DNA of 37,595 bases from Chloroflexota bacterium. Its GTDB lineage: Bacteria > Chloroflexota > Dehalococcoidia > SM23-28-2 > RBG-16-64-32. The stretch spans positions 1 to 37,595 of the forward strand of contig JBDTOK010000002.1 of assembly GCA_039933275.1 (NCBI GenBank). The letters run 5' to 3'. Of the stretch, positions 5,423 through 25,847 are shown piece after piece (positions within the stretch are counted from its first letter, which is position 1; every line of letters begins with the position of its first letter). Under the pieces are notes generated by a model, which did not search any database, was not told where the DNA came from, and saw only the letters and a list, made by a program, of their open reading frames with translations. The translations under genes and the position numbers were made by a program.

Positions 5423-6358
5423 ATGAGCCGGAACGGATCGAGCACTAACGGAACGAAGAAGTCGCGCGGCGCGATTGTTGTCACCGGCACGTCGACCGGC
5501 ATCGGTCGCGCTACTGCTGACCGTCTGGCCGCCGCTGGCTTCCACGTCTTCGCCGGCGTGCGCAAGCTCGAAGATGCGAAGCCCGGCGCCAACATCACGC
5601 CTATCGTGCTTGACGTCACCGATCAGTCGACGATTGATGCTGCCGCCGCGACGGTCACCAAGCAACTTGGCGATTCACCGTTGCGCGGCCTCGTCAACAA
5701 CGCGGGCATCAGCGTCGCCGGCCCGATCGAGTTCGTGCCGCTCGACGACTTCCGCAGGCAGCTCGAGGTAAACGTGATCGGGCAGGTCGCGGTCACGCAG
5801 GCGTTCCTTCCGCTCCTCCGCAAGAGCCGCGGCCGTATCGTCAACGTTGGTTCCATCGGCGGCAAGATGGCCTCGCCGTTCCTCGGTCCGTACGCTGCCT
5901 CCAAGTTCGCTCTCGAAGCTATTACCGACGCCCTGCGCGGTGAGCTTCGTCCGTGGCATATCGCCGTATCCATTGTTGAACCCGGCGCGATCGCGACGCC
6001 CCTCTGGGAGCGCAGTCGCGTCTCTGCCACAAGCATGCTCGCCAACGCGCCGGTCGAAGCCACCGAGCTCTACGGCGAGGCGATCGACGCGATGCTCGCA
6101 GCCGTGGACGTCATCGAGAACCGCGCTATCCCAGCCGACGCCGTCGCCAAAGCGATCGAGCACGCACTTACAGCGAAACGACCAAAGACGCGCTACCTCG
6201 TTGGCATCGCCGCGCGCGCCCAGTCGATCCTCGCGGGAGTAGTTCCGGACCAGGCGATGGATGGCCTGATCGCGTGGCAGCTCAAGCTCCCGAAGAAGGG
6301 CTCGAAGGCGGTGAAGAAGTCAGCGCCGGAATGTCAGCCCGAGGACTCGCGCGCCTAG
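5423..6358 (+). CDS. Short-chain dehydrogenase/reductase (17-beta-HSD/RDH-like)
   Basis: TGTSTGIG, LVNNAG, YAASK motifs; AAGGAGG RBS before ATG at 5423. Confidence 0.92.
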   Translation: MSRNGSSTNGTKKSRGAIVVTGTSTGIGRATADRLAAAGFHVFAGVRKLEDAKPGANITPIVLDVTDQSTIDAAAATVTKQLGDSPLRGLVNNAGISVAGPIEFVPLDDFRRQLEVNVIGQVAVTQAFLPLLRKSRGRIVNVGSIGGKMASPFLGPYAASKFALEAITDALRGELRPWHIAVSIVEPGAIATPLWERSRVSATSMLANAPVEATELYGEAIDAMLAAVDVIENRAIPADAVAKAIEHALTAKRPKTRYLVGIAARAQSILAGVVPDQAMDGLIAWQLKLPKKGSKAVKKSAPECQPEDSRA

Positions 6359-7492
6359 CGCCCTACCGACGCGCTGCGCCGCCGGATCGTCGTTCGCGGC
6401 CAGCGCCTCCAGCGCCTGGATCGCGCCGGTCGTGTTGAGGTTAGCCGCCATCGCATCCGTAAACGGCCCGCGGTAGCGCTCGATCTCTTCGTCCGTCGCT
6501 TCGCCCGCATCGCCGAACGACTTCGTCAGCTTGTTGGCGAGTTCCTCCGTCGGCACGGGCGCGCCCTGTGGGTGGTCCCACGCCCGTGCGTAGGGGTGCG
6601 ACAGCAGGTGCAGCCGCAGCGCATCCGCAGAGTACTGCTTGAGCAACTCGCCGACGAACACCATGTTCCCCAGCGACTTGCTCATCTTGTGCTCTCCGCA
6701 ATACACCATTCCCGTGTGCATCCAGTGCTTCACGAAGCGCTCGCCGCTGTAGCTCTCGCTCTGCGCGGCCTCCGCGTCGTGGTGTGGGAAGACCAGGTCC
6801 TCGCCGCCGCCGTGCACCGTGATCGGCATCTTCAAGTACTTCGCGCTCATCGCCGAGCACTCGATATGCCAGCCCGGCCGCCCGGGACCCCACGGCGACT
6901 CCCAGCTCGGCTCGCCAGGCTTCTGTCCCTGCCACAGCACAAAGTCCAGCGGGTCGCGCTTGTTGGCGTCGCCCGGGAAGTTGCCGCGCTCGTTCGCGAT
7001 CTCCAGCAGCGCCTCGTACGGCTCTTTGAACAGACGCGGGAAGTTCTTGTCTTTCTTCACCTCGAAGTAGACGTTCGGGCCGCTCGCGTACGCCAACCCC
7101 TTCTCCACCAGCCCGCCGATGATCGCCTGCATCTCCGGGATGTGCTGCGTCGCCCGCGGCGCTACGTCCGGGTCGAGGTTGCCCAGCGCCGACATCTGCT
7201 CCCGGAAGCTGGCGTACTCGCGGTTGCCCAGCGCCTGCCAGTCCTCCCCCAGCTTGTTCGCCCGCAGCAGCACGTCGTCGTCGATGTCGGTCACGTTCTG
7301 CACGTACGTCACCCGGCGCCCGCAGAAGCGCAGGAACCGCACCAGCACGTCGAACATGATGTAGGTAAACGCGTGCCCCAGGTGCGAGGTGTCGTATGGC
7401 GTCACGCCGCATACGTACAGCCCCACCTCGGCGTCATCGATCTGCTCGATACGCTTCGATTCTGTGTTGTACAGGCGAATTAGCGGAGCCAC
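6320..7492 (-). CDS. mshC: Cysteine--tRNA ligase family protein lacking the anticodon-binding domain (MshC-like cysteine ligase)
   Basis: YVCGVTPYD, HLGH, GRPGWHIEC, FPHH and KMSKS motifs; only 390 aa; TPYD and ERG-x-x-xD features are MshC-like. Confidence 0.65.
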   Translation of the reverse strand: MAPLIRLYNTESKRIEQIDDAEVGLYVCGVTPYDTSHLGHAFTYIMFDVLVRFLRFCGRRVTYVQNVTDIDDDVLLRANKLGEDWQALGNREYASFREQMSALGNLDPDVAPRATQHIPEMQAIIGGLVEKGLAYASGPNVYFEVKKDKNFPRLFKEPYEALLEIANERGNFPGDANKRDPLDFVLWQGQKPGEPSWESPWGPGRPGWHIECSAMSAKYLKMPITVHGGGEDLVFPHHDAEAAQSESYSGERFVKHWMHTGMVYCGEHKMSKSLGNMVFVGELLKQYSADALRLHLLSHPYARAWDHPQGAPVPTEELANKLTKSFGDAGEATDEEIERYRGPFTDAMAANLNTTGAIQALEALAANDDPAAQRVGRALGARVLGLTFRR

Positions 7493-8476: not shown

Positions 8477-9477
8477 CCGACACCGCGCTCATCCCCGAGG
8501 GCGTACACAAGATTCGTGTCCCGCTCACGGGCAGCCCGCTCGGCTGGGTAAACTCCTACGTCATCAACACGGACGAAGGGTACGCGCTCGTCGACGTCGG
8601 CTGGGACACGCCCGACTCACTCGAAGCGCTGCGCAAGGGCCTGGATGACCTGAACATCCCGCTCGAATCGATTCGGCGGCTGATCATCACGCACAACCAC
8701 CCCGACCACTACGGGCTTGCCGGGCGTCTTGTACAGCTGGCATCGTGCGGCGTCATGATGCACCGCCTCGACGCGGTGCACATCGAGAGCCGCTACGTAA
8801 ACATGACGCAGCTCGAAGCCGAGATGACGCAGTGGCTGCGCACGCACGGTGCACCGAAGGACGAGCTGCTCGACATGGTGAAGGGCTCCGAGATGATCCT
8901 GAACCGCGTGAACATCGTGAACCCCGACATTCAGGTGGACGGCGGTGAGCGCATAACCGGCGGCAAACTGGAGTGGGAGATCGTCTGGACGCCCGGGCAC
9001 TCCATCGGCCACATCTGCCTGTACGAGCGCACCACGAAGTCGTTCATGTCCGGCGACCACATCCTCAACCCGATCAGTCCTAGCATCGGCCTGCACGCGC
9101 AATCGATGGGCAACCCGCTCTCCGACTACCTCGCGTCCCTGCAGGCGATCCGCGACCGTGACGTCGAAGTCGTCCTCCCGGCGCACGGTGACGAGTTCCG
9201 CGGCTTCCGCGAGCGCATCGACCAGCTCGTCAGCCACCACGAGACCCGCCTCGACGAGATCTGCGAGATCGTCGCGCGCGAGGGCGATCAGTCCGCCTAC
9301 GACGTCGCTTCTAACATGCGCTGGCGGACCAACAACGCCTGGAAGGAGTGGCCGCCGTTCCAGCGCCGGATGGCCACCACCGAAGCGCTCGCCCACACGG
9401 AACTGCTCGTCTCCCGTGGCCGCCTGCGCCGCCAGATTGCCGACGGCGGCCTCGTCCGATACGCTTTGCCCCTGTGA
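8473..9477 (+). CDS. MBL-fold metallo-hydrolase with C-terminal winged helix
   Basis: THNHPDH, TPGHS, GDH, PAHG metal ligands. Confidence 0.92.
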   Translation: MTDTALIPEGVHKIRVPLTGSPLGWVNSYVINTDEGYALVDVGWDTPDSLEALRKGLDDLNIPLESIRRLIITHNHPDHYGLAGRLVQLASCGVMMHRLDAVHIESRYVNMTQLEAEMTQWLRTHGAPKDELLDMVKGSEMILNRVNIVNPDIQVDGGERITGGKLEWEIVWTPGHSIGHICLYERTTKSFMSGDHILNPISPSIGLHAQSMGNPLSDYLASLQAIRDRDVEVVLPAHGDEFRGFRERIDQLVSHHETRLDEICEIVAREGDQSAYDVASNMRWRTNNAWKEWPPFQRRMATTEALAHTELLVSRGRLRRQIADGGLVRYALPL

Positions 9478-10550
9478 CCATACCTAAAACCACCGGCGGC
9501 AACTTCTTCGAAGACTTCCAGCGCGGCGCCACCATACAGCACGCCGTCCCCCGCACGATCTGGGACGGCGACCTGGCGCTCTACATTGCCCTCACGGGCG
9601 ACCGCCGTCCGCTCAACTCTGACCGCGAGTTCGCCCAGTCCCTCGGCTTCGACCGCGAGCCCGTCCACGACTTGCTGGTCTTCCACATGGTCTTTGGCCG
9701 GGCGGTTCCCGACGTCTCGCTCAACTCGCCGGCCAACCTTGGCTACGCCGATGTCCGCTTCCTCCGCCCCGTCTACACCGGCGACACCCTCCGCGCTGAG
9801 ACCAAGGTCATCGGCAAGCGCGAGACCTCCCGCCCAGACGTCGGCATTGTCTGGGTGCACACGAAGGGCGTGAACCAGCACGACGAGACCGTCCTCCAGT
9901 TCTACCGTTGGGCGATGGTCAACAAGCGCGAGCCCGGCAAGCCCACCGGCGATGACGACGCCCCCGAACTGCCCGCGCAGGTGAGCACCGAAGACCTGTA
10001 CGTCCCACCGGAGCTAGATCTCAAGCGCTATGACACCGTTATCACCGCGCAGAAAGCGATGTGGGAGGACTATGAGCCGGGCGAGCGCATCATGCACCCG
10101 CAAGGTCTCACCGTCGAAGACGCGGAGCACCAGATGGCGACGCGCCTCTACCAGAACAACGCTCGCGTCCACTTCAACGACGTCCTGCAAAAGAAGTCGA
10201 AGCTGGGCAAGCGCATTATCTACGGCGGCCACATCATCTCGCTCTGCCACTCCATCAGCTACGACGGGCTCGAGAACGCGATCCGCGTCCTCGGCTTCAA
10301 CGCCGGCGCCCACGCCAACCCCACCGTCGCCGGGGACACGCTCTTCGCCTGGACCGAAGTGCTGGCACGCGTCGAACTTGGCCGCGCTGACGCGGGTGCC
10401 CTCCGTCTGCGGCTCGTCGGAGTCAAGAACATCGACCCGCGCGAGGAGGACGTCCCGCTGCGCATCAAGGGCGACGATGGCCGCGAGTCCTACAACCCGA
10501 ACGTCGTCCTTGACCTCGACTACACGGTGCTCATGCCGCGCAAGCGATAG
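9474..10550 (+). CDS. mch: Mesaconyl-CoA hydratase (beta-methylmalyl-CoA dehydratase), double hot-dog MaoC fold
   Basis: KTTGGNFFEDF...PRTI...FHMVFG..VPDVSLN..ANLGYA, EHQMATRLYQN, VLDLDY match Mch. GTG at 9474 overlaps the upstream TGA. Confidence 0.85.
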   Translation: MTIPKTTGGNFFEDFQRGATIQHAVPRTIWDGDLALYIALTGDRRPLNSDREFAQSLGFDREPVHDLLVFHMVFGRAVPDVSLNSPANLGYADVRFLRPVYTGDTLRAETKVIGKRETSRPDVGIVWVHTKGVNQHDETVLQFYRWAMVNKREPGKPTGDDDAPELPAQVSTEDLYVPPELDLKRYDTVITAQKAMWEDYEPGERIMHPQGLTVEDAEHQMATRLYQNNARVHFNDVLQKKSKLGKRIIYGGHIISLCHSISYDGLENAIRVLGFNAGAHANPTVAGDTLFAWTEVLARVELGRADAGALRLRLVGVKNIDPREEDVPLRIKGDDGRESYNPNVVLDLDYTVLMPRKR

Positions 10551-12076: not shown

Positions 12077-12439
12077 TTAGTGCGATGTCCCTCGCTCACC
12101 GATCGCGATGTGGTGCCCGTCCGGATCGTGAATCACAAAGTCGCGATTCCCCCACGGCTGCGTCGTCAACTCCATGTCGATGCTCGCACCCGCCTCGCGC
12201 AACTGCGAGTACAACTCCTCGACGCCGGTCACGTACACGTAGCAACCACTCACCTGCGGCATCGCATTGTGAACCAGCGCGATCTCCGCGCCCTCACGCA
12301 CAACCAGCGCAAACTCCGGCGGCTCGCCCATCGTCGCTACGATCTCAAAGCCAAGCTTCTCGCGGTAGAACGCCGCTGTGCGCGCCACATCGCTCACCTG
12401 GAAGTTCGGCCGCGCGTTCAGAAAGTGGACCGTGGCCAC
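12077..12439 (-). CDS. VOC family protein (glyoxalase/bleomycin resistance)
   Basis: AFYREKLGF...QPWGNRDF...DPDGH. GTG at 12439 overlaps the upstream stop. Confidence 0.9.
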   Translation of the reverse strand: MATVHFLNARPNFQVSDVARTAAFYREKLGFEIVATMGEPPEFALVVREGAEIALVHNAMPQVSGCYVYVTGVEELYSQLREAGASIDMELTTQPWGNRDFVIHDPDGHHIAIGERGTSH

Positions 12440-13779
12440 TAGTTCTGCCAGCTGATGTCGAACACCCGCACCGGATCCTCGAATCCGCGCATCACATGCT
12501 CGCCGCGGTCCGCAAACAAGAAACCTTTGCCGCCGCACAATTCGCGTACTCCCAGCGACGAAAGTATCTCACCGCCCTGCGCCATCGCCGCGATGCGCGC
12601 GGCCATGATCACGGTCTCGCCGAACAGATCGCCGTCCTCTTCGATCGGCTCACCTGCGTTCAGCCCGACCCGGATCGTTAGCGGCTCCTCGGCGGACTCA
12701 TTCCGCTCCGCGAACGCCTTCTGCAGCGCAATCGCGCACTCGACGCCCTTCGTCACGGACGGAAACGAGGCCATGAACCCGTCGCCCATCGTCTTTACTT
12801 CGGATCCGCTGTGCTGCTTGAGCACATCGCGCGTGACCGTCTCATGCTCGCGCAGGACGGCTCGCCCCTTCTCGTCACCGAGGCGGCGCATCATCGCCGT
12901 GTGCCCGACGAGATCGGTGAAGAGAATCGTCTTGAATCCCGACGTTTGGTCCGCCGCGGGTCTTTTCTCGCGCGTCTCGTAACCCACGAATTCTGAAAGA
13001 GCGGCAAACGCCTTCTGGAATCCCTCAGGACCCATGATGTGAGCCCCGTTGAGTGAGACAAAGCGAGCCCCCTTGATGCCCGCGGCTATCTCCTGTCCCA
13101 ATTCGATCGGGACGATGCGATCCTCGTGCGTATGGATCACCAGGGTCGGTACATTAATCTGCGAGAGCAGTGGGCGCACGTCGATGCTAACGGCGGCTTC
13201 GATGATCCCGACTGCGTCTTGAGCGTTCGCGCAAGTCCGCTGATACGCCGCGAACGCCTCAATGCTCATGATCGAATTCTCCCCGACAAATAGCTCCGCC
13301 ATCACTTTCGACGCCATGCCCCACTCAGCCTTCGTGATCGCGATAACCGCGTCGCGCATCTGCGGCGTTCCCGCAAGCCCGGCGCCGTTCGCGAACGAAC
13401 CGAGGATGATCAGCTTTGTTACCTTCTCCGGGTGCCGCGCGGCGTAGGCAATCGCGATTGGCCCACCTTCGGAGTGTCCGCCGAGCGCGAACTTGTCGAT
13501 CCCAGCGTCCTCTACAACGGCCTCCACGTCACGCACCCGCGCTTCGAGTGAGAGATCGCTGATATTGCGTCCAGATAGTCCGCCCCCGCGCTTGTCCATC
13601 TGTATCCAAAGATGACGGGCGGAGTATTGGAGGATACCCATGCTTTCGGAGAGTTGGTGATCGATCTCCAGGTGGCTTATCCAGCCCGGGATCCAGACGA
13701 TGGGTGAACCTTCGCCCGCGATGGAATATGCAATGCGAGTCCCATCGAACGAGGTGCAGTATCTGACTTCGCGCTCCAT
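12439..13779 (-). CDS. Alpha/beta hydrolase fused to a class III adenylate/guanylate cyclase (LipJ-like architecture)
   Basis: GHSEGG nucleophile elbow; cyclase motifs LFTDLVG, VKTMGDG, GDLFG, AARI. Confidence 0.92.
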   Translation of the reverse strand: MEREVRYCTSFDGTRIAYSIAGEGSPIVWIPGWISHLEIDHQLSESMGILQYSARHLWIQMDKRGGGLSGRNISDLSLEARVRDVEAVVEDAGIDKFALGGHSEGGPIAIAYAARHPEKVTKLIILGSFANGAGLAGTPQMRDAVIAITKAEWGMASKVMAELFVGENSIMSIEAFAAYQRTCANAQDAVGIIEAAVSIDVRPLLSQINVPTLVIHTHEDRIVPIELGQEIAAGIKGARFVSLNGAHIMGPEGFQKAFAALSEFVGYETREKRPAADQTSGFKTILFTDLVGHTAMMRRLGDEKGRAVLREHETVTRDVLKQHSGSEVKTMGDGFMASFPSVTKGVECAIALQKAFAERNESAEEPLTIRVGLNAGEPIEEDGDLFGETVIMAARIAAMAQGGEILSSLGVRELCGGKGFLFADRGEHVMRGFEDPVRVFDISWQN

Positions 13780-13868
13780 ATCGGAGTCAGGATACCAGCG
13801 GGAGCGCCCGAACTACAGCAAACCGGGCAAGTCTCGCCCTGGTCCGCATCTGGTGGGTTAGAGCGGCG

Positions 13869-14105
13869 TTAACGCTCCAGCGTCTCTCCCGAGTACAGCT
13901 TTCGCACGATCACACCCTTCGCCGGCGCCGCCTGCACGCATAGCTCGCACAGCACGCACTCATCGAGGTTCGACTCAATGATTGTCGCATTGCCCTGCGC
14001 GTCCGTCCCGAAGATGTTCACCGGGCAGACCTCCACCAGCTTCTTCGCCAGCTCTTTGTCTTGCGCGGCCTGCGCCTGGATGTCTACTTCGATGAACATC
14101 GCCAT
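13869..14105 (-). CDS. Small 4Fe-4S ferredoxin
   Basis: VCP plus CVLCELC: four Cys, enough for one cluster; AGGAG RBS. Confidence 0.85.
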   Translation of the reverse strand: MAMFIEVDIQAQAAQDKELAKKLVEVCPVNIFGTDAQGNATIIESNLDECVLCELCVQAAPAKGVIVRKLYSGETLER

Positions 14106-14114
14106 GCTTCTCTC

Positions 14115-14516
14115 CTAGTGTCCGTTCGCCATCTGCCAGTGCTTCGCTGTATCGGTGACGTGCTGGTACTTCGTGACTTTGCCGGCCTTGTTGAATACCC
14201 AGAGGTGGCCCTCGTACGGGAAGCTGTACTTCTTACCCGTCTCCCGGTGCGTCGCCTCCATGTGAATCAGCACGAACACTTTGTCGCCGGTTTCGAAATA
14301 AGTCTCCGGATCAAACGTCGTGAACTCGATTGGCGCGAGCGACTCGAAGAACGCCGGCACTTCCGCCTTGCCGTGGCGCGGCTCGAACCAAGGGATACCT
14401 TGCGTCTGACTGTCCGTCTCCCACTCGACGTTGTCGTCGAGGTGTTCGAGGATGGCCGGCACATCGCCGCGCCCGAACGCGTCGTACATCTGCTTTACTG
14501 AATCGACGTTGCTCAT
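14115..14516 (-). CDS. SnoaL-like/NTF2 family protein
   Basis: YDAFGRGDVPAIL...DDNVEWE...HG..EV..FF; GGAGG RBS. Confidence 0.88.
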   Translation of the reverse strand: MSNVDSVKQMYDAFGRGDVPAILEHLDDNVEWETDSQTQGIPWFEPRHGKAEVPAFFESLAPIEFTTFDPETYFETGDKVFVLIHMEATHRETGKKYSFPYEGHLWVFNKAGKVTKYQHVTDTAKHWQMANGH

Positions 14517-14573
14517 TTCATTTCCTCCGTGATTGTGATGTCGCCCGTTATTCGGGGCGACCAACAACTCGGA

Positions 14574-15476
14574 TCACTTCTTCGCCAGCGCCTTTTTCAC
14601 AAGGTCGGGAATCTGCGAAATCTCCTCTGCTACGGCGATGCCGGCCTCGTTCAGGCGCAGCAGCTTCTCTTCCGCCGTGTCGGCCTTGCCTTCGACGATC
14701 GTCCCTGCGTGCCCGAAGCGCATGCCAGGCATCTTGTCCATGAACTTGCCAGCCATGAAGGCGATAATCGGCAGCCGCGAGTTGTTCTCCTTCACCCAGA
14801 GGGAGAGCTGCGCGTCCATCGGCCCGCCCGGCTCCGTGTAGATCACGATCGCGTCCGTCTCCTTGTCCGCTTCGAACAGCGGCATCAGCTCCGCGTACGT
14901 CGAGCCAATCATCGGGTCTCCGCCGATCGACACCGCTGTGCTCTGCCCGAGCCCGGCGGCCGTCAGCGAGTTCGATATCTCTGTAGTCATGCCGCCTGAG
15001 CGTGACATAACTCCGATGCGACCCGGCGAGTACGCCTGTCGAGTGTTCGCGGCCGGCCCGCCGATGCCGCCCATCTTGCCTTTGCCCGGCGTAATCATCC
15101 CTAGGCAGTTGGGCCCGATCACCCGCGTCCCGCGCTCCTTCGCAAACTCAAGAACCTGTGCCACCTCGTAGCGGGGCGTGCGCTCGGTGACGATGACCAG
15201 GATCTTCACCCCGGCCTCGATCGCCTCAAAGGCAGCGTCGCGCACGAACGGCGCCGGCACCGTAATCACCGACCCGTCGACGTGCTCTTTCTTCGTGATC
15301 TCGGCCACCGTGTCGTATACAGGCACGCCGTACACGTCGCGGCCGCCGCGTCCTGGCGTTACCCCGCCCACCACCTTCGAACCGTAGTCCAGGCACTCGC
15401 GTGTCATATTGACCGCTTCGCGCCCGGTGATGCCCTGGATGATGAACGTTGTGTTCTCGTCGATAAGTATGCTCAT
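14574..15476 (-). CDS. ADP-forming acyl-CoA ligase alpha subunit (SucD family; citryl-CoA synthetase small-subunit-like)
   Basis: IQGITG, GVTPG, IGPNC, IGGDP and FGHAG phospho-His motifs. ATG at 15476 overlaps the DUF1330 stop. Confidence 0.88.
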   Translation of the reverse strand: MSILIDENTTFIIQGITGREAVNMTRECLDYGSKVVGGVTPGRGGRDVYGVPVYDTVAEITKKEHVDGSVITVPAPFVRDAAFEAIEAGVKILVIVTERTPRYEVAQVLEFAKERGTRVIGPNCLGMITPGKGKMGGIGGPAANTRQAYSPGRIGVMSRSGGMTTEISNSLTAAGLGQSTAVSIGGDPMIGSTYAELMPLFEADKETDAIVIYTEPGGPMDAQLSLWVKENNSRLPIIAFMAGKFMDKMPGMRFGHAGTIVEGKADTAEEKLLRLNEAGIAVAEEISQIPDLVKKALAKK

Positions 15477-15781
15477 GCGTTGTCCCTCGGTGGCATCACC
15501 ATGCCCTCGACCATAAACAGATGGCCGGTCGTAGCGTTTTGTCGTATCGGCGCGATCGCCTGGTACGCCGGAGAGTCGTACCATTCGCGCGCTTTCTCCA
15601 GCGAAGCGAACTCGCCAACGATTGTGCGGAGGTGCGGAATCGAACCTTCGCGCACGACGGCGTCGTTCGCGGCCACAATCTTGCCGCCAAAGGGCTTCAG
15701 CGTCGGGAATATCTTAGATGCGTAGTCGTAGTAAGCATCGACGTCCTGCACGTCAAACTGCGCGATCACGTAAGCGCTCAC
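15473..15781 (-). CDS. DUF1330 family protein
   Basis: AYVI...Y...FGGKI...EG...EFASLEKAREWYDSPAYQ...R. Confidence 0.9.
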   Translation of the reverse strand: MSAYVIAQFDVQDVDAYYDYASKIFPTLKPFGGKIVAANDAVVREGSIPHLRTIVGEFASLEKAREWYDSPAYQAIAPIRQNATTGHLFMVEGMVMPPRDNA

Positions 15782-16986
15782 TTCGCGTTGATCTTTTCCA
15801 CGGCGCGCCGCGCCGCTTCAGACATCGAGACCGTCCGGTCGCAGTAGTCGACGCCATACTTCTCGAGCAGCTTGAACCCTTCGCCTTCCCATGAGCCGGG
15901 GATGCGGAACACCGCGATCTTCTCGGCCGGATCGAACCCCATCTCGATGACGCCCTTGACCACGCCGCGGGCGACGATATCCACGCGCGTGTTCGAGACG
16001 ACGTTCATGATCACCGCGATCTTGTCGACGCCCGGCTTGCTGAGGATGAGTTTCGTCAGCTCGCACGCCTTCAGCACGCTGGGGTTGCCGCCGATCTCGC
16101 AGTAGTTGGCCGGTCGGCCGCCGTACTTCTGGATCGCATCGAAAATCGTCAGCGAGCCACCGCCGGCGCCGATCACCAGCCCCAGGTTGCCGTCGAACTC
16201 GACGACCCGGCCGGCGACGCCACGGTGGTCCACCTGGTCGACCCGAGCGCCGCGCATCTCGAACTCTGTCGGGGGGCGCCCCTGTCGGGTCTCGTCTGCG
16301 CCGATGCCGAGGTCGTCCAGCACCGACATCTGGTGCCGCTCCCGCGCCTCTTCTTCCATATCGAGGTGGCAGTCCAGCACAACGAACGTGCCGTCCGTCA
16401 GCTTACCCAGTGGGTTGATCTCCGCCAGCGTCAGGTCGTACGCGAGGAACGTCTTCACGAGCCTCGACATAACTGCAGTCAGCTGATTGAGGTCGTTGCC
16501 GGTGATCCCGAGCGATGCAACCGCCAGCTTCGCCTTGTGGTCGGTGAACGGCAGGAGCGTCGAGAAATGCGCCTTCGCGATGTGCTCCGGGTGCGTCTCC
16601 GACACCTCTTCGATGTCGATGCCACCCATGTCGCTAATGATCATCAGAGGCTGCTTGGCGACAGCGTCAAACGTAACGCCCAGGTAATACTCCTGCGTCA
16701 CCGAGGCCTTCGCCTCAACAAGCACGTTCACCGGCAATTGGTCCTTTATCGGCAGCTTCATTATCTCGAGGCAGGCCCTTTCCGCTTCGTCCGGCGTGTC
16801 CGCAAACTTCACGCCGCCGGCCTTCATACGTCCGCCAGACAAAACCTGCGACTTGAGCACCACCGGCCCGCCAATACTATCGGCGATCCGCCGAGCGTCC
16901 TGCGGCTGCTCCGCCGTCCCGCCTGCGGGAAGCCGAACTCCCTGCATGGCGAGGAGCCGTTTTGCTTCGAATTCGTAAAATCTCAT
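15778..16986 (-). CDS. ADP-forming acyl-CoA ligase beta subunit (SucC/ATP-grasp family; citryl-CoA synthetase large-subunit-like)
   Basis: YEFEAK, KSQVLSGGRMKAGGVK, GGIDIEE, EINPL ATP-grasp motifs; divergent C-terminal ligase domain. Confidence 0.88.
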   Translation of the reverse strand: MRFYEFEAKRLLAMQGVRLPAGGTAEQPQDARRIADSIGGPVVLKSQVLSGGRMKAGGVKFADTPDEAERACLEIMKLPIKDQLPVNVLVEAKASVTQEYYLGVTFDAVAKQPLMIISDMGGIDIEEVSETHPEHIAKAHFSTLLPFTDHKAKLAVASLGITGNDLNQLTAVMSRLVKTFLAYDLTLAEINPLGKLTDGTFVVLDCHLDMEEEARERHQMSVLDDLGIGADETRQGRPPTEFEMRGARVDQVDHRGVAGRVVEFDGNLGLVIGAGGGSLTIFDAIQKYGGRPANYCEIGGNPSVLKACELTKLILSKPGVDKIAVIMNVVSNTRVDIVARGVVKGVIEMGFDPAEKIAVFRIPGSWEGEGFKLLEKYGVDYCDRTVSMSEAARRAVEKINAK

Positions 16987-17001
16987 CGTCGTCCGCTTTC
17001 G

Positions 17002-18051
17002 TTAGAGCCCGTACAGCTCTGCGTACTTCTTATCCCGCTTCGCGATCATCTTCGCCGTGGCCACCATGACCTGCGCCTGCTTGAACGTGGCGTCGTCTTG
17101 CATGCGGCCGTCTAGCATCACTGTGCCGGTGCCGTCGCCCATCGCCTCGATGATGCGTGTCGCCATCTTTACTTCGTCCGCCGTCGGGCTGAACTCGCGG
17201 CGTGCAATCTCGATCTGGCTTGGGTGCAGCGTCCAGGCGCCGACGCAGCCCATCAGGAACGCCGCTCGGAACTGCACCTCGCACGCCTTCGGGTCTTCGA
17301 TCGCCCCGAACGGCCCGTAGAACGGCAGGATCCCGCTCGAATTGCAGGCGTCCACCATCCGCGCCATCGTGTAGTGCCACGGGTCCTGCTGCGCCGACAA
17401 TCGAGGCGTGTCCGGGTTGTTCGCGTCCGGATCTGATATCACCTGGTACGACGGATGCCCGCCGCCGACGCGCGTCGTCTTCATACGCCTCGATGCCGCT
17501 AAATCCGCCGGCCCGAGGCTAATCCCTTGCATTCGAGGGCTGGCCGCGCAAATCGCCTCCACATTCGAGACTCCGAGCGCCGTCTCCAGGATCGCGTGCA
17601 CCTGCAGCGACTTTTTGATCCCGTGCTGCGCTTCAAGTTGCGCCAGCAGCCGGTCGATGTAGTGGATGTCCCACGGCCCTTCGACCTTCGGCACCATCAC
17701 CACGTCCAGCTTGTTGCCGATCGCCGGGATCACCTCGAACAAGTCGTCTAGCACCCACGGGCTGTCCAGGCTGTTGATCCGAGTCCACAGCGACGTCTCC
17801 CCAAAGTCGTTCTTCTGCGCGACTTCGATCAGCCCAGCGCGGGCTGCATCCTTCTCCGTGGCCGGGATCGCGTCCTCCAGGTTGCCGAGCAGCACGTCGA
17901 CCTGCGGGATGATCTCCGGTATCTTCGCGCGCACTTTCTCCAGGTGGGGCGGGAAGAAGTGGATCATCCGATACGGCCGCGCCGGGATCTCATTGATCGG
18001 GGTAGGCGCGCCGACGGCCAGCGGCGTCAGAAATGCCCTCGGATTTCGCAT
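17002..18051 (-). CDS. mcl: Malyl-CoA/beta-methylmalyl-CoA/citramalyl-CoA lyase (Chloroflexus-type)
   Basis: [62 protein letters not shown] match the recalled Chloroflexus Mcl sequence closely. Confidence 0.88.
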
Positions 18052-18120
18052 AAGAACGAGTCGGAGTATATGAAGCCATATCTGAGAGGGTCAAGGAACG
18101 AGCGTGCTAGCATTGCCCCG

Positions 18121-18999
18121 ATGACCAACACGGGCCCTTTTCGCAGCGTTCTCTTCGTGCCCCTGACCGCACCCCGCTTCATCGAGAAGGCGGCCCAATC
18201 CGTCGCCGACGCCATCTGCCTCGACCTTGAGGACGCCGTCGCCCCCGATCAGAAGGACGCGGCCCGAGCCGCCGCCCCCGCCGCCATCGACACGCTGGCC
18301 GCCTCCGGGTGCGCCGTCTGGGTGCGCATCAACGCAATCGATTCCCGCCACTCCGAAGCTGACCTCGACGCCATCGTCCGGCCCGGCCTGAGCGCCGTCA
18401 TGCTCCCGAAAGCCGGGTCCGCCGCCGACATCGCCCGTCTCGAAGAAGCGCTCTCCCGCCTCGAAGGCGAGCCTGGGCTCGACGCCGCAAAGGCCGTAGC
18501 CATCGTCCCCCTGATCGAAACACCGCGCGGCATTCTCCACGCCGAGGGCGTTTGTGGCGCCTCCCCGCGCGTCATCGCAGCCGCTTTCGGCGCCGAAGAC
18601 TTCCGCGCCCAGATGCGAACGGGTGACTCCACCGCGGCTTTGGCCTACCCCCGCGCCCACCTCGCCGTCGTCTGCGCCGCCGCCGGCATCGAAGCCATCG
18701 ACACTATCGACACCCAGTACTCAGACCTCCCCGCGCTCGAAGCCGGTATGCGCCAGGTACGCGCCCTCGGCTTCGGCGGCAAGCTGTGCATCCACCCAGC
18801 GCAGGTGCCCATCGCCAACGAAGTCTTCCGCCCTGGCGAGGCGGAGCTGGCCGAGGCCCGGGCAATAGTCACCGCTTTCGAGCGAGATGGCCTCGCGAAG
18901 GGGCGCGCGGCCATACCGCTGGGGGGTAAAATGATCGACACGCCGATCTACTGGCGGGCCAAGCGCCTGCTAGAGGCGGCGGAGCGAACGGAGAAGTGA
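18121..18999 (+). CDS. CitE/HpcH-family CoA ester lyase (possible malyl-CoA thioesterase)
   Basis: RSVLFVP, DLEDAV, VRIN, IETP.G, FGAED, GKLCIHP.Q, GKMID.P. Confidence 0.88.
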   Translation: MTNTGPFRSVLFVPLTAPRFIEKAAQSVADAICLDLEDAVAPDQKDAARAAAPAAIDTLAASGCAVWVRINAIDSRHSEADLDAIVRPGLSAVMLPKAGSAADIARLEEALSRLEGEPGLDAAKAVAIVPLIETPRGILHAEGVCGASPRVIAAAFGAEDFRAQMRTGDSTAALAYPRAHLAVVCAAAGIEAIDTIDTQYSDLPALEAGMRQVRALGFGGKLCIHPAQVPIANEVFRPGEAELAEARAIVTAFERDGLAKGRAAIPLGGKMIDTPIYWRAKRLLEAAERTEK

Positions 19000-19196
19000 A
19001 GTACCGAGATGCCATTCAAGATTGTCGAACGGGACGGCTGGTTCGTGACTACCCAGAAGGGCAGCCACCGCCAGTTCAAACATCCCGTCAAACAAGGCAA
19101 GGTCACGATAGCGGCCATCCGAGCAAAGATGTGCCGCCAATGACATTGAACAGCATCATGCGTCAGGCTCAGATCCGGCTCCGAGACCAAGAGTGA
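18996..19196 (+). pseudogene. hicA: HicA mRNA interferase toxin disrupted by compensating +1/-1 frameshifts
   Basis: Frame A gives MKYRDAI. A shifted frame from 19018 gives KIVERDGWFVTTQKGSHRQFKHPVKQGKVTIA. Frame A from 19113 gives GHPSKDVPPMTLNSIMRQA. Directly upstream of hicB. Confidence 0.85.
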
Positions 19197-19477
19197 CGAA
19201 ATACTTAGTAATCCTCGAAAAGGCCGAAGGAAACTGGGGTACGTTCGTTCCGGATCTGCCCGGCTGCGTAGCTCTCGGTGACACGGTCGAAGAAACGATG
19301 GAACTCATGCGCGGTGCAATTGACATGCACTTGGGCGCCATGGTCGAAGACGGTGACCCTATACCTGAGCCCACCACATTAGTCGACTATGTCGATGTAG
19401 ACGTTCCCGCCAAGAAGAATGCTGACTCCAAGCGTCCACGTACCCGCAAGAAAGTCGCGGCCAGGCCAAATGACTAA
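19193..19477 (+). CDS. hicB: HicB family antitoxin
   Basis: YLVILEK...FVPDLPGCVALGDTVEE...AI..HL..M.EDG.PIPEP. Confidence 0.93.
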   Translation: MTKYLVILEKAEGNWGTFVPDLPGCVALGDTVEETMELMRGAIDMHLGAMVEDGDPIPEPTTLVDYVDVDVPAKKNADSKRPRTRKKVAARPND

Positions 19478-21185
19478 CACCAACGGCAGCTCACACAACG
19501 GCGACGACAACCACATCGCCGATGAGAAGAAGCGCTGGCTCGCTGGCGCCTACGCCAGGTCCGTCGAGAACGGCGGCGAGCGCAAGGACACCGACTTCCG
19601 GACCAGTTCCACGGACGCCGAGCCCCTCTACACTCCGGCGGACGTCCACTCTGACTACGAGACTGACATCGGTTTCCCCGGCGAGTATCCGTTCACGCGC
19701 GGTGTCCAGCCCAACATGTACCGCGGCCGCCTCTGGTCGATCCGCCAGTACGCTGGCTACGGCACGCCCGAAGAGACGAACGCGCGCTTCAAGTTCCTGC
19801 TGAACGAAGGCCAGCCCGGCCTCTCCGTCGCCTTCGATCTGCCGACGCAGCTCGGCTACGACTCCGACGACCCCCTCGCTGAGGGCGAAGTCGGCAAGGT
19901 CGGCGTCGCCATCGACACGCTAGCCGACATGGAGACGATGTTCGAGGGCATCCCCCTGGATCGCGTGAGCACCTCGATGACGATCAACGCTCCTGCCGCC
20001 GTCCTAGTCGCGATGTACGCTGTCGTCGGCCAGAAGCAGGGCGTCCCGCAGGACCGCATCTCTGGCACCGCCCAGAACGACGTCCTCAAGGAGTACGTCG
20101 CGCGCGGCACTTACATCTACCCTCCGAAGCCCTCGCTTCGGCTCGCCGCTGACCTCATGTCGTACTGCGCCCGCGAACTGCCTCGCTTCAACGCGATCAG
20201 CATCAGCGGCTACCATATGCGCGACGCTGGTTGCACCGCCGTCCAGGAGATCGCCTTCACCTTCGCCAACGCTGTGGCCTACGTCGAAGCGGCCATCGAG
20301 CGAGGCGTCAGCGCCGATGACATCGGCCCGCGGATCAGCTGGATCTTCAACACACAGAACAACTTCCTAGAAGAGATCGCAAAATACCGCGCCCTCCGCC
20401 GGATGTGGGCGCGCATTATGGCGGAGCGCTTCGAAGCCAAGGACACGCGCTCGATGATGCTGCGCACGCACGTTCAGACGGGCGGCGCCACCCTCACCGC
20501 CCAGCAGCCGGAGGTGAACATCATCCGCGCGTCGCTGCAGGCGCTTGCCACCGTCATCGGCGGCGTGCAGTCACTCGCGCTCTCTTGCTACGACGAAGCC
20601 CTCGCCCTCCCGACGGAGCAGGCCCAGCGCATCGCCGTCCGCACGCAGCAGGTCATCGCTTACGAGAGCGGCATCGCGGACACGGTCGACCCGTTCGCCG
20701 GGTCTTACTACATCGAGAACCTGACGGATGAGCTTGAGCAGAAGGCTCAGGAGTACCTCAACAAGATCGAGGATATGGGCGGCGCCATCCAGGCGATCGA
20801 GTCCGGCTACGTCCAGCGTGAGATCCAGGAAGCGTCCTACGCCTACCAGAAGTCCGTCGACGAAGGGCGCAAGGTCATCGTCGGCGTCAACAAGTTCGTG
20901 AACGAAGGCGAAGACCCGCAGCCCATCTTCCGCACCGACCCAAAGTCCGAGAAGGCCCAGATCGAACGCCTCACCACCGCCCGCGGCCACCGCGATGACG
21001 CCGCCGTCGCGGCAGCGCTCGCCAACCTTACCGCCGCCTGCAGCAACGGCGACGGCACGTCCGGCGGGGCGGAGAACCTGATGTACCCTATCGTCGAAGC
21101 AGTGAAGACGTACGCTTCAGTGGGCGAGATCTGCGGCGCCATGCGCGGCGTTTTCGGCGAGTACACCGCCGCCACGGCCGTCTAA
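19470..21185 (+). CDS. Methylmalonyl-CoA mutase family, catalytic subunit without a B12-binding domain
   Basis: PGEYPFTRG, RQYAG, GLSVAFDLPTQ, QNDVLKEY.ARG, ISGYH. No DxHxxG motif. Confidence 0.92.
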   Translation: MTNTNGSSHNGDDNHIADEKKRWLAGAYARSVENGGERKDTDFRTSSTDAEPLYTPADVHSDYETDIGFPGEYPFTRGVQPNMYRGRLWSIRQYAGYGTPEETNARFKFLLNEGQPGLSVAFDLPTQLGYDSDDPLAEGEVGKVGVAIDTLADMETMFEGIPLDRVSTSMTINAPAAVLVAMYAVVGQKQGVPQDRISGTAQNDVLKEYVARGTYIYPPKPSLRLAADLMSYCARELPRFNAISISGYHMRDAGCTAVQEIAFTFANAVAYVEAAIERGVSADDIGPRISWIFNTQNNFLEEIAKYRALRRMWARIMAERFEAKDTRSMMLRTHVQTGGATLTAQQPEVNIIRASLQALATVIGGVQSLALSCYDEALALPTEQAQRIAVRTQQVIAYESGIADTVDPFAGSYYIENLTDELEQKAQEYLNKIEDMGGAIQAIESGYVQREIQEASYAYQKSVDEGRKVIVGVNKFVNEGEDPQPIFRTDPKSEKAQIERLTTARGHRDDAAVAAALANLTAACSNGDGTSGGAENLMYPIVEAVKTYASVGEICGAMRGVFGEYTAATAV

Positions 21186-24827: not shown

Positions 24828-25325
24828 ATGTCTCGCAACGAAGTCGAAGTCCTTGTCGAACTGCTGGACAGCGCCTTCCAGCGCCCGATCCCGGACAACT
24901 GGTCGGATGGCTGGCACTCGTTGCTCTCCAACCTCCGCAGCGTCCGTGAAGAAGACTGGGATTGGCTCCCAGCGGACGGCGTTCGGACGATCCGCGACCT
25001 CGCGAGTCACTGCGGCCGCACCATGCGCGTCTACGCCTATTACGGCTTCGATGCGCCGGAAATGCACTGGGGCGAGGAAAATCCACCCGCCGCAATCCGC
25101 GCAACGAAGGAGCTCCTCACACCCTGGCTTGTCGAAAGTTACGAGACGCTTCGCGACACCGTCGCTAAGTTCAACGACGACCAGCTCGATGACCCGCGCG
25201 AGACCTGGGATGAGGGCGACTTCCGCCCCCGCCGCTGGTTCGTCACCACCATGATCGACCACCTCCTCTACCACGCCGGCGAAATCAACCACATCCGCGC
25301 ACTCGCCCAGAAGAACGACGAGTAA
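24828..25325 (+). CDS. DinB family protein (copy 1)
   Basis: RTIRDLASH...MIDHLLYHAGEIN three-His pattern. Confidence 0.88.
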   Translation: MSRNEVEVLVELLDSAFQRPIPDNWSDGWHSLLSNLRSVREEDWDWLPADGVRTIRDLASHCGRTMRVYAYYGFDAPEMHWGEENPPAAIRATKELLTPWLVESYETLRDTVAKFNDDQLDDPRETWDEGDFRPRRWFVTTMIDHLLYHAGEINHIRALAQKNDE

Positions 25326-25346
25326 GCGAAGCGCTATCCTGAACGC

Positions 25347-25847
25347 ATGACCCGCGCCGGCGTCGACCAGCTCCTCTACATGCTCGATCGCGCCTTCGCG
25401 CCGATCGACGATGACGTCGAGCACTCGCTGCTCCACAACCTGGAAGCTGTGACCGAGGACGACTTCCTTCGCGCTGCGCCAAACGGTAACCGGACGATCG
25501 TCCAGATCACCTGGCACGCCGCCGCCGCCAAGCTCATGTATGCCAACCACTGCTTCGGCGACGGCACGCTCACCTGGGACGAGCTCTTCAACCACTGGGA
25601 GGGCAAGCCTTCAAAGACCGAGATGATTGACTGGCTGCGCGAAGCCCATGCCGAATTCCGCGGCCTCATCGAACCGCTGGATGACGGCGCCCTAACTGTC
25701 GAGCGCAAAGCTCCCTGGGGCGCGATGCACGAGACCCGCTGGATCGTCGCCCAGATCATCGAGCACGACGTCTACCACGCCGGCGAGATCAACCTGATCC
25801 GCGCCCTGCTCCAAGACACCGACTCCAGGCCCACCTTCGATGAGTGA
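25347..25847 (+). CDS. DinB family protein (copy 2)
   Basis: RTIVQITWH...IIEHDVYHAGEIN. Confidence 0.88.
   Translation: MTRAGVDQLLYMLDRAFAPIDDDVEHSLLHNLEAVTEDDFLRAAPNGNRTIVQITWHAAAAKLMYANHCFGDGTLTWDELFNHWEGKPSKTEMIDWLREAHAEFRGLIEPLDDGALTVERKAPWGAMHETRWIVAQIIEHDVYHAGEINLIRALLQDTDSRPTFDE

Follow-up and report, generated by a model that had tools for sequence, protein, structure and literature searches.

A citryl-CoA-synthetase-type ligase encoded with malyl-CoA lyase in Chloroflexota: a candidate malate-CoA ligase

Introduction

Two-subunit acid-CoA ligases that resemble succinyl-CoA synthetase (SucCD, SCS) are found next to carbon-carbon lyases in well-described systems. The citryl-CoA synthetase (CCS, CcsAB) of Hydrogenobacter thermophilus (PDB 6hxq) follows a ligase-then-C-C-lyase design together with citryl-CoA lyase (CCL), and in serine-cycle methylotrophs the ADP-forming malate thiokinase MtkAB is genetically linked to malyl-CoA lyase (Mcl). 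In Rhodobacter sphaeroides, as described in passages of PMC2948502 and PMC3832036, Mcl1 and Mcl2 act together as an "apparent malate synthase" within the ethylmalonyl-CoA pathway, where Mcl forms malyl-CoA and a second enzyme frees malate. Here we analyse a stretch of 37,595 nucleotides from a soil Chloroflexota bacterium of the class Dehalococcoidia (contig JBDTOK010000002.1 of assembly GCA_039933275.1; "the window" in what follows), in which a Chloroflexus-type mcl gene is followed, 15 bp further on, by the genes of a two-subunit ligase carrying CCS-type signatures.

Based on what is observed of this ligase (its gene anatomy, paralogy, CCS-type signatures and clade placement, its linkage to Mcl-family lyases and its co-occurrence with crotonyl-CoA carboxylase/reductase, Ccr), we propose that it may be a malate-CoA ligase (malyl-CoA synthetase) of the CCS lineage, which would release malate, with formation of ATP, after Mcl. 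We give this proposal about an even chance; which acid and which nucleotide are used, and in which direction the reaction runs in the cell, is what we infer. Relative to MtkAB, with which it would share the presumed substrate pair malate/malyl-CoA, such a ligase would be an independent and convergent recruitment. The full-text literature that we searched, whose coverage leaves out most subscription journals and supplements, holds no description that we could find of a CCS-type ligase tied to an Mcl or CitE lyase.

Results

A CCS-type paralog beside a canonical SucCD

By profile and structure-database comparison, the two subunits are assigned to the SucCD/CCS/ATP-citrate lyase (ACL) superfamily of ADP-forming acid-CoA ligases. 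Both stay below the equivalog cut-offs of the NCBIfam SCS models: the beta subunit scores 245 bits against SucC model NF001913 (cut-off 370) and 231 bits against TIGR01016 (cut-off 375.55), and the alpha subunit 295 bits against SucD model NF004230 (cut-off 336) and 291 bits against TIGR01019 (cut-off 353.2). The distance to the MtkA model (NF010647) is much larger, with 169 bits for a cut-off of 604. Among PDB entries, beta is closest to the Thermus SCS (3ufx_B, 187 bits), followed by citryl-CoA synthetase (6hxq_B, 162 bits), E. coli SucC (1jkj_B, 143 bits) and the ACL beta subunit (69 bits), and alpha is nearer to SucD (257 bits; 258 for Thermus SCS 3ufx) than to CcsB (180 bits). The ligase thus has in common with SucCD, including the GTP-preferring Thermus enzyme, the domain architecture, the top overall scores and the phosphohistidine loop (the GHAG loop of alpha is intact and its His is invariant in the alpha alignment).

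The genome to which the window belongs (G000, a 2.6-Mb metagenome-assembled genome, 79.7% complete) also encodes, on other contigs, a canonical SucC (503 bits) and a canonical SucD (425 bits), and SucC is above the cut-off in four of five other ligase-bearing genomes, with fragments in the fifth. The CCS-type ligase is, therefore, a paralog that exists next to a normal succinyl-CoA synthetase. A first-pass annotation of the window, made from the sequence alone, had set the ligase apart from canonical SucCD and from the SucCD-derived MtkAB, and both separations are borne out by these scores and by the trees described below; the absence of any other sucCD from the genome, which it had listed as evidence that would count against its claim, is not what is found. 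In two of the genomes, reading frames are split into neighbouring frames (Ccr in G003, SucC in G003 and G002; G003:C1:3446833-3448021, G003:C1:2491116-2492271 and G002:C1:1348806-1349407), which likely reflects frameshift errors of long-read assembly and not pseudogenes. A further non-canonical SucCD-like pair, annotated as "ATP-grasp domain-containing protein" and "CoA-binding protein", lies on an Azospirillum plasmid (L088), where it follows a tricarboxylate transporter and an aldehyde dehydrogenase gene; it takes a basal position in the SucC clade.

Acid-site motifs and phylogeny

The motifs that the first-pass annotation had quoted are all present, namely GRPPTEFEMRGARVDQVDHRGVAGRVVEFDGNLGLVIGAGGGSL, NYCEIGGNP, KLILSKPG and NTRVD in beta and GITGREA, MGGIGG and SRSGGMTT in alpha, and a regular-expression search of beta found neither of the SucC-type strings NGAGLAM and [DN][VLI]GGG[AS]. 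In the beta alignment, GAGGGSL and EIGGNPS occupy the places of these SucC-type motifs, by which SucC presumably binds succinate. The likeness to citryl-CoA synthetase that was noticed at first pass is real, since a phmmer alignment of beta with 6hxq_B matches RPPTE, DHRG.AG, GGGS, IGGNP, ILSKPG and NTR.D residue by residue; the acid-binding domain would accordingly be of the CcsAB kind, with its D[HY]RG insert, GGGGS, GGNP, ILSKPG and NTR.D.

In order to place beta among its relatives, we searched 1.84 billion representative proteins and took the best 150 matches, 85 of which were near full length and entered the trees together with references (the canonical SucC of the same genome, two genes of the MtkA type taken from plasmid records of Paracoccus and Methylobacterium bullatum, and the Azospirillum paralog). 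Trees were built with FastTree and, for 56 rows, with a quick IQ-TREE run (site-mixture model, SH-aLRT support). In the IQ-TREE run, beta falls in a clade, here X, with a starred support of 100, the SucC and MtkA sequences form another (99, starred), with the MtkA-type references grouped inside it (100, starred) and away from the query, and a further clade, Y2, is also recovered (99, starred); FastTree gives the same split. Clade Y2 is represented by P0184, which scores 156 bits with 3ufx_B and 150 bits with 6hxq_B, and the rows nearest to Hydrogenobacter CcsA make up Y1, a label that depends solely on P0152 (292 bits to 6hxq_B), so that the query beta lies in a different clade from the sequence most similar to the solved CcsA. 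The separation of beta from SucC and MtkA, proposed at first pass, stands; a sister relation to the Hydrogenobacter CcsA clade would be one of several possible arrangements, the branching order among X, Y1, Y2 and SucC having an SH-aLRT of 58 in a tree whose rows do not include named CcsA or AclB sequences.

The 56-sequence alignment points in the same direction as the clades. Characters of the rare-change kind unite the beta sequences of X, Y1 and Y2: an insert of 6-8 residues containing D[HY]RG, GGGGS or GGGAS where SucC has NGAGL, GGNP where it has GGGA, and a single additional residue ahead of NTR.D. The insert and the CCS-type motifs are absent from all 14 rows of the SucC/MtkA clade, in which MtkA has kept the motifs of SucC, and they also occur in L151, a relative linked to CCL. 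Alpha has clade-specific marks too. A 6-residue insert (GGPAANTRQAY) and SRSGGMTTE are common to CCL-linked and CitE-linked relatives, and two residues inserted ahead of the GHAG loop are likewise found in relatives; all three marks are missing in SucD and MtkB.

The malyl-CoA lyase and other CitE-family enzymes

The product of mcl matches the malyl-CoA lyase structures 4l7z/4l80 with 502 bits (over residues 6-349) and 6kin with 501 bits, compared with 200 bits for the Rhodobacter/Methylobacterium type, and it keeps in the alignment the catalytic residues R91, E156, D183 and D319 (the roles of this Arg, Glu, Asp and Asp are treated in passages of PMC3832036). These similarities identify it, at the sequence level, as a Chloroflexus-type (S)-malyl-CoA/beta-methylmalyl-CoA/citramalyl-CoA lyase, as the first-pass annotation had proposed. 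Unlike the partner of CcsAB, it has the CitE/Mcl-fold TIM barrel and not the citrate-synthase fold of CCL.

A second CitE/Mcl-family gene of the window, citE2, is kept at the same position wherever relatives carry a Chloroflexus-type Mcl; its best PDB matches are 5ugr (150 bits) and 1sgj (131 bits). According to the part of PMC3832036 that deals with Mcl2-type malyl-CoA thioesterases, these have Glu at the position of the lyases' catalytic Asp. The product of citE2 keeps the Asp and does not have the Glu, so by this residue criterion it would not be a thioesterase of the Mcl2 type. No CitE-family gene of the five ligase-bearing genomes described below has Glu in this column, that is, no Mcl2-type thioesterase was seen in them, and in G004, a complete chromosome from Solirubrobacterales, Mcl is the only gene of this family.

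In many Dehalococcoidia, the lyase adjacent to the ligase is a separate 342-residue Mcl-family enzyme, which we call lyB. Its best PDB match is the malyl-CoA lyase 5ugr (110 bits), it retains the catalytic Asp, and it has a faint Pfam similarity to DUF6986 and to the malate synthase TIM barrel (malate synthase E = 6e-7). It could represent either an Mcl that has yet to be characterised or an enzyme resembling malate synthase that works in the ethylmalonyl-CoA pathway.

Lyase partners across the clade

In order to survey how often ligases of this clade adjoin a lyase, we used 80 genome loci (close relatives with 57-93% identity, from Dehalococcoidia/Chloroflexota, Solirubrobacterales/Thermoleophilia and Binatia) and 80 metagenome loci retrieved with a profile of the wider clade. 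A lyase was counted if it was on the same strand, at most 1.7 kb away, with a tblastn E of at most 1e-8 and at least 120 aligned residues; loci that extended for 1.2 kb or more to either side and contained an alpha gene were considered evaluable. The linkage is conserved, with an Mcl-family lyase at 34 of the 54 evaluable genome loci and a lyase at 22 of the 27 evaluable metagenome loci (Table 1).

Table 1. Lyase genes next to the ligase in the two sets of loci.
Partner	Genome loci, all	Genome loci, evaluable	Metagenome loci, all	Metagenome loci, evaluable
Chloroflexus-type Mcl	21/80	17/54	12/80	5/27
lyB	24/80	17/54	4/80	2/27
CitE type	0/80	0/54	21/80	13/27
CCL	0/80	0/54	3/80	2/27
None	35/80	20/54	40/80	5/27

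The CitE-type lyases of the metagenome set usually come directly after alpha, and at three loci (L117, L151 and L147) the ligase adjoins CCL. In L151 and L117, the short proteins with a citrate-synthase fold score 264 and 251 bits, above the cut-off of 245 of the NCBIfam citryl-CoA lyase subfamily, and L151 has a pyruvate:ferredoxin oxidoreductase gene nearby; these three loci look like CCS/CCL pairs of the reductive tricarboxylic acid (TCA) cycle outside the Hydrogenobacter-type CcsA clade. In a FastTree tree labelled by partner, the ligases with an Mcl-family partner form a crown group (98, starred), in a tree in which length and coverage filters kept 1 of the 21 CitE-linked and 2 of the 3 CCL-linked loci and which shows this Mcl-linked subclade well and the deeper partners poorly. 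Read from these sequences, the basal part of clade X has apparently genuine CCS/CCL pairs, and its crown group is partnered with Mcl-family lyases.

Among the deeper relatives, the metagenome loci L136, L146, L158, L167, L118 and L106 have beta-alpha-CitE operons, with neighbours that include PrpD/MmgE (L118, L158), succinate dehydrogenase/fumarate reductase genes (L158, L167), a GntR regulator with TRAP DctP (L146) and a family III CoA-transferase (L106). Such operons, built around a CitE-fold lyase, may serve to cleave citrate, citramalate or similar acids at the expense of ATP.

Metabolic setting of the hosts

Five ligase-bearing genomes were checked for marker genes: that of the window and four reached through the loci, with titles that describe G001, G003 and G004 as single chromosomes. 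Ccr is above its cut-off in four of them and split in the fifth, and none of the five has, above the respective cut-off, an isocitrate lyase, a malate synthase or a citryl-CoA lyase (NF004866). MOFRL glycerate kinase, Fae and PQQ alcohol dehydrogenase were each found in 0/5, and the window has no serine-cycle genes. Unlike that of CcsAB, the setting of these hosts is the ethylmalonyl-CoA pathway rather than the reductive TCA cycle, and it comes without the usual serine-cycle markers; the pathway call is based on Ccr, mesaconyl-CoA hydratase (Mch), Mcl, mutase and thiolase, with ethylmalonyl-CoA mutase and methylsuccinyl-CoA dehydrogenase not pinned individually.

The association was also counted across 151 evenly sampled Dehalococcoidia genomes, each 80% complete or more, with the ligase called at E of at most 1e-100. 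Here 20 genomes have the ligase, 37 have Ccr and 32 have malate synthase; Ccr occurs in 17/20 ligase-bearing genomes and in 20/131 that lack the ligase (descriptive counts from related genomes), and in two of the sampled genomes (G116, G117) it lies 2-4 kb from the ligase. A clean complementarity between ligase and malate synthase among the Ccr-bearing genomes was considered and is ruled out, since 16 of the 20 that lack the ligase have neither (malate synthase is present in the remaining 4/20).

Organization of the locus

Five minus-strand genes follow each other with spacers of at most 15 bp, in the order mcl, ligase beta, DUF1330, ligase alpha and SnoaL (Table 2). The open reading frames, the strand and the 15-bp spacer between mcl and beta reported at first pass agree with the sequence; the interval of about 300 bp between beta and alpha, taken then as a gap, holds the DUF1330 gene, and the SnoaL gene, the divergent citE2 and the mutase gene had also been overlooked. 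The DUF1330 stop overlaps the alpha start (ATGA), and the spacer from alpha to the SnoaL gene is 6 bp. A DUF1330 gene lies between the subunits in 14 of the 133 loci with both subunits, mostly in the nearest relatives, so it is accessory; in other loci, such as L024, L032, L041 and L140, 0.4-1.6 kb of other DNA separates beta from alpha. The SnoaL gene recurs after alpha in the near relatives L007, L011, L016 and L021 and probably belongs to the same operon as ligase alpha.

Table 2. Positions of the features discussed, in the window unless a locus or genome is given.
Feature	Position	Strand	Description
mcl	17002..18051	-	349 aa; Pfam HpcH_HpaI 93 bits
Ligase beta (large, ATP-grasp)	15778..16986	-	402 aa; Pfam ATP-grasp_2 164 bits; CCS-type C-terminal domain
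DUF1330 gene	15473..15781	-	about 97-102 aa; Pfam PF07045 89.6 bits
Ligase alpha (small, CoA-binding, phosphohistidine)	14574..15476	-	300 aa from MSILID; Pfam CoA_binding 84 bits, Ligase_CoA 49 bits
SnoaL_2-domain gene	14115..14567	-	150 aa; Pfam PF12680 61 bits
Promoter-like site	18065..18094	-	TTGACC-18-TATACT; directly upstream of mcl, in the 69-bp divergent region
citE2	18121..18999	+	second CitE/Mcl-family CoA-ester lyase; Pfam HpcH_HpaI 152 bits
Acyl-CoA mutase, large subunit	19419..21185	+	methylmalonyl- or ethylmalonyl-CoA mutase type; Pfam MM_CoA_mutase 723 bits; TIGR00641 737 bits
Mch-like MaoC enzyme	9348..10550	+	Pfam MC_hydratase 94 bits, MaoC_dehydratas 70 bits
Hydrolase-cyclase fusion	12439-13779	-	alpha/beta-hydrolase fused to adenylate/guanylate cyclase domain
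CysS-type protein	6320-7492	-	390 aa
DinB/mycothiol-S-transferase-like genes	24828-25847		in tandem
lyB example	L020:4426-5454
lyB example	L029:4952-5980
lyB example	G058:C8:75462-76151
CCL-adjacent CCS-like ligase locus	L117:7202-7969
CCL-adjacent CCS-like ligase locus	L151:4156-4953
CCL-adjacent CCS-like ligase locus	L147
Azospirillum plasmid SucCD-like pair	L088:5001-7030

Co-transcription of the five genes is predicted from their spacing. The promoter-like site upstream of mcl is favoured only by its position, given that one such site was found for 1.1 expected by chance; a search for terminator-like sites on the minus strand gave none from 18051 down to 14115 and a first one beyond at 13839-13825, and an Rfam scan of 13800-19500 returned no RNA family at E of at most 1.

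The citE2 and acyl-CoA mutase genes are transcribed divergently from the mcl operon, and the mutase gene is syntenic in relatives that carry a Chloroflexus-type Mcl. An Mch-like gene lies within 6 kb in many relatives, and the window additionally encodes two thiolases (one PhaA-like), an enoyl-CoA hydratase and a short-chain dehydrogenase/reductase. The hydrolase-cyclase fusion gene, 335 bp downstream of the operon, is LipJ-like (179 bits, under the cut-off of 800) and is also found near the ligase in L011, L012 and L033. Farther away are the tandem DinB/mycothiol-S-transferase-like genes and a CysS-type protein that scores 369 bits for cysS (cut-off 340) and 336 bits for MshC (cut-off 485) and is shorter than the 466-position cysS model.

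Discussion

Proposed reaction

In the mechanism that we propose, the two subunits would form an ADP-forming (or GDP-forming) acid-CoA ligase acting through a phosphohistidine, as in SucCD and CCS, and the substrate pair would most likely be (S)-malate and (S)-malyl-CoA, that is, the product or substrate of the Mcl encoded upstream. Mcl would cleave beta-methylmalyl-CoA and condense glyoxylate with acetyl-CoA to give (S)-malyl-CoA, which the ligase would then convert, with ADP (or GDP) and inorganic phosphate, into malate, CoA and the nucleoside triphosphate. The pair would thus work as an ATP-conserving "malate synthase", at the same pathway position as Mcl1 plus Mcl2 and replacing them; unlike Mcl2, a CitE-like thioesterase that wastes the thioester and whose Glu-type signature is missing from the five genomes, the ligase would save the thioester energy as ATP. 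Since reactions of this type are reversible, the same two enzymes could also act as malate thiokinase and lyase.

Host metabolism bears mainly on the direction. Because Ccr and Mch are present and isocitrate lyase and malate synthase are absent, Mcl is expected to make malyl-CoA in these hosts, and this context argues that the malate-forming direction is at least as likely as cleavage. Citryl-CoA, citramalyl-CoA and malyl-CoA are all 3-hydroxy-3-carboxy-acyl-CoA esters, and through this shared chemistry a role with malyl-CoA fits a CCS ancestry. For the use of such a system in the synthase direction there is a parallel in Desulfobacter, where ATP-citrate lyase is run that way.

A broader scenario, to which we attach a tentative and lower likelihood, is that Mcl and the CCS-lineage ligase form an ATP-yielding malate synthase that closes the ethylmalonyl-CoA pathway, that the CCS ancestor exchanged its citrate-synthase-fold lyase for CitE-fold lyases, and that the resulting system spread across Chloroflexota, Actinomycetota and Binatota.

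Several observations weigh against a malate-CoA ligase working in this direction, for which both the malate substrate and the direction are read from sequence and context. The acid-site motifs hardly vary with the class of partner lyase, relatives that go with CitE-type enzymes or with citryl-CoA lyases included, so the sequence does not single out malate; the adjoining methylmalonyl-CoA-mutase (MCM)-type gene could point to succinyl-CoA, and alpha comes close to SucD (295 bits for a cut-off of 336). The 20 of 54 evaluable genome loci with no lyase within 1.7 kb are mostly from Solirubrobacterales, and in L069 Mcl is 3 kb away from the ligase, with phosphoenolpyruvate carboxykinase (PEPCK) between them. 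The genomes counted are related and not independent, so that the co-occurrence counts overstate the support and are descriptions rather than tests; moreover, Ccr was not seen in 3 of the 20 ligase-bearing Dehalococcoidia genomes, and 2 of these 20 have malate synthase. Of the 37 Ccr-bearing genomes of the sample, 20 do not have the ligase (16 of them also without malate synthase), which makes the ligase dispensable for the pathway. Two small genomes of this kind, G058 (99% complete) and G079 (95%), have lyB as their sole CitE-family gene, beside Ccr, and they weaken the idea that the absence of Mcl2 makes the ligase necessary. If lyB itself hydrolysed malyl-CoA, activation would become the more likely role of a ligase adjacent to it.

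Alternative functions

Run towards cleavage, the direction proposed at first pass, the same enzymes would be a malate thiokinase system, with malate, ATP and CoA giving malyl-CoA and then glyoxylate and acetyl-CoA, in a serine-cycle-like or glyoxylate-generating route. The gene logic is that of mtkAB-mcl in methylotrophs (the Paracoccus locus L087 has mtkA, a sucD-like gene, ppc, hpr and a CoA-ester lyase gene), and the PEPCK gene between Mcl and ligase in L069 would fit as well. The co-occurrence with Ccr is also compatible, since methylotrophs, according to passages in PMC2948502, combine the serine cycle with the ethylmalonyl-CoA pathway. On the other hand, the window and its hosts lack the company that MtkAB keeps: no serine-cycle gene adjoins the locus, MOFRL glycerate 2-kinase, Fae and PQQ alcohol dehydrogenase are missing from all five genomes (three of them titled single chromosomes), and what hosts that have neither isocitrate lyase nor malate synthase need is a way out of malyl-CoA and not a way in. 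We consider this direction of work unlikely, although it is the strongest of the alternatives.

The ligase could instead activate a C5 acid, such as (S)-citramalate, mesaconate, beta-methylmalate, itaconate or methylsuccinate, whose CoA ester would be handled by the trifunctional Mcl and by Mch, which is encoded in the window. Citramalate is the closest structural analogue of citrate and would be compatible with a CCS-type site, and the CitE-linked sister systems L118 and L158 adjoin PrpD/MmgE genes; the Chloroflexus-type Mcl also cleaves citramalyl-CoA and beta-methylmalyl-CoA, as stated in the portion of PMC3832036 on these lyases. Nevertheless, the operon has neither a transporter nor a source pathway for such acids, the intermediates of the ethylmalonyl-CoA pathway are already CoA esters, and the ligase site stays constant when the lyase partner changes between Chloroflexus-type Mcl and lyB, all of which makes a C5 substrate quite improbable.

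A second succinyl-CoA synthetase, for instance one with another nucleotide preference that would dispose of the succinyl-CoA made by the mutase, ranks after the C5 acids and is likewise improbable. In the PDB, both subunits match the Thermus SCS (3ufx) best overall, their best NCBIfam matches are SucC and SucD, and the MCM-type mutase gene is divergently adjacent and syntenic. Speaking against this function are the canonical SucCD already present and the replacement of the NGAGLAM and GGG motifs (the presumed succinate site) by CCS-type ones; furthermore, across the clade it is the adjacency to a lyase that is kept and not that to a mutase, and the basal members of the clade pair with citryl-CoA lyase.

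A genuine citryl-CoA synthetase that relies on Mcl or citE2 for the lyase step, in an analogue of ATP-citrate lyase for the reductive TCA cycle, is very improbable, because, in spite of the CCS-type motifs, of the same-clade ligases beside proteins that exceed the citryl-CoA lyase cut-off (L151, L117) and of the JGI name carried by many homologs ([quoted passage not shown]), CCL, the partner by which a CCS system is defined, is missing from all five genomes, the lyase encoded with the ligase is a close match to a solved malyl-CoA lyase, the hosts use Ccr-based acetate assimilation, and Mcl is not known to cleave citryl-CoA.

Conclusions

If the malate-CoA ligase assignment is true, this enzyme would represent a second, independent origin of malate/malyl-CoA ligases, from the side of citryl-CoA synthetase and not from SucCD. 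The clade shows that the "ligase plus C-C lyase" arrangement is a module that swaps lyase folds (CCL, CitE type and two types of Mcl) around one conserved ligase scaffold.

There is also a consequence for the reading of genomes. Automatic annotation labels such genes "citryl-CoA synthetase large subunit", and surveys, as described in 10.64898/2026.09.02.748891, take ccsA/ccsB as markers of the reductive TCA cycle. As the clade is present in genomes without CCL, it would produce false positives for this cycle, and it is likely a source of false "ccsA/ccsB" calls in carbon-fixation surveys.

For the organisms themselves, a ligase run towards malate would add one ATP per malate to the acetate assimilation of slow-growing soil and groundwater bacteria. 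It would constitute a new energy-conserving step of the ethylmalonyl-CoA pathway, as well as a useful part for synthetic routes based on glyoxylate and acetyl-CoA.

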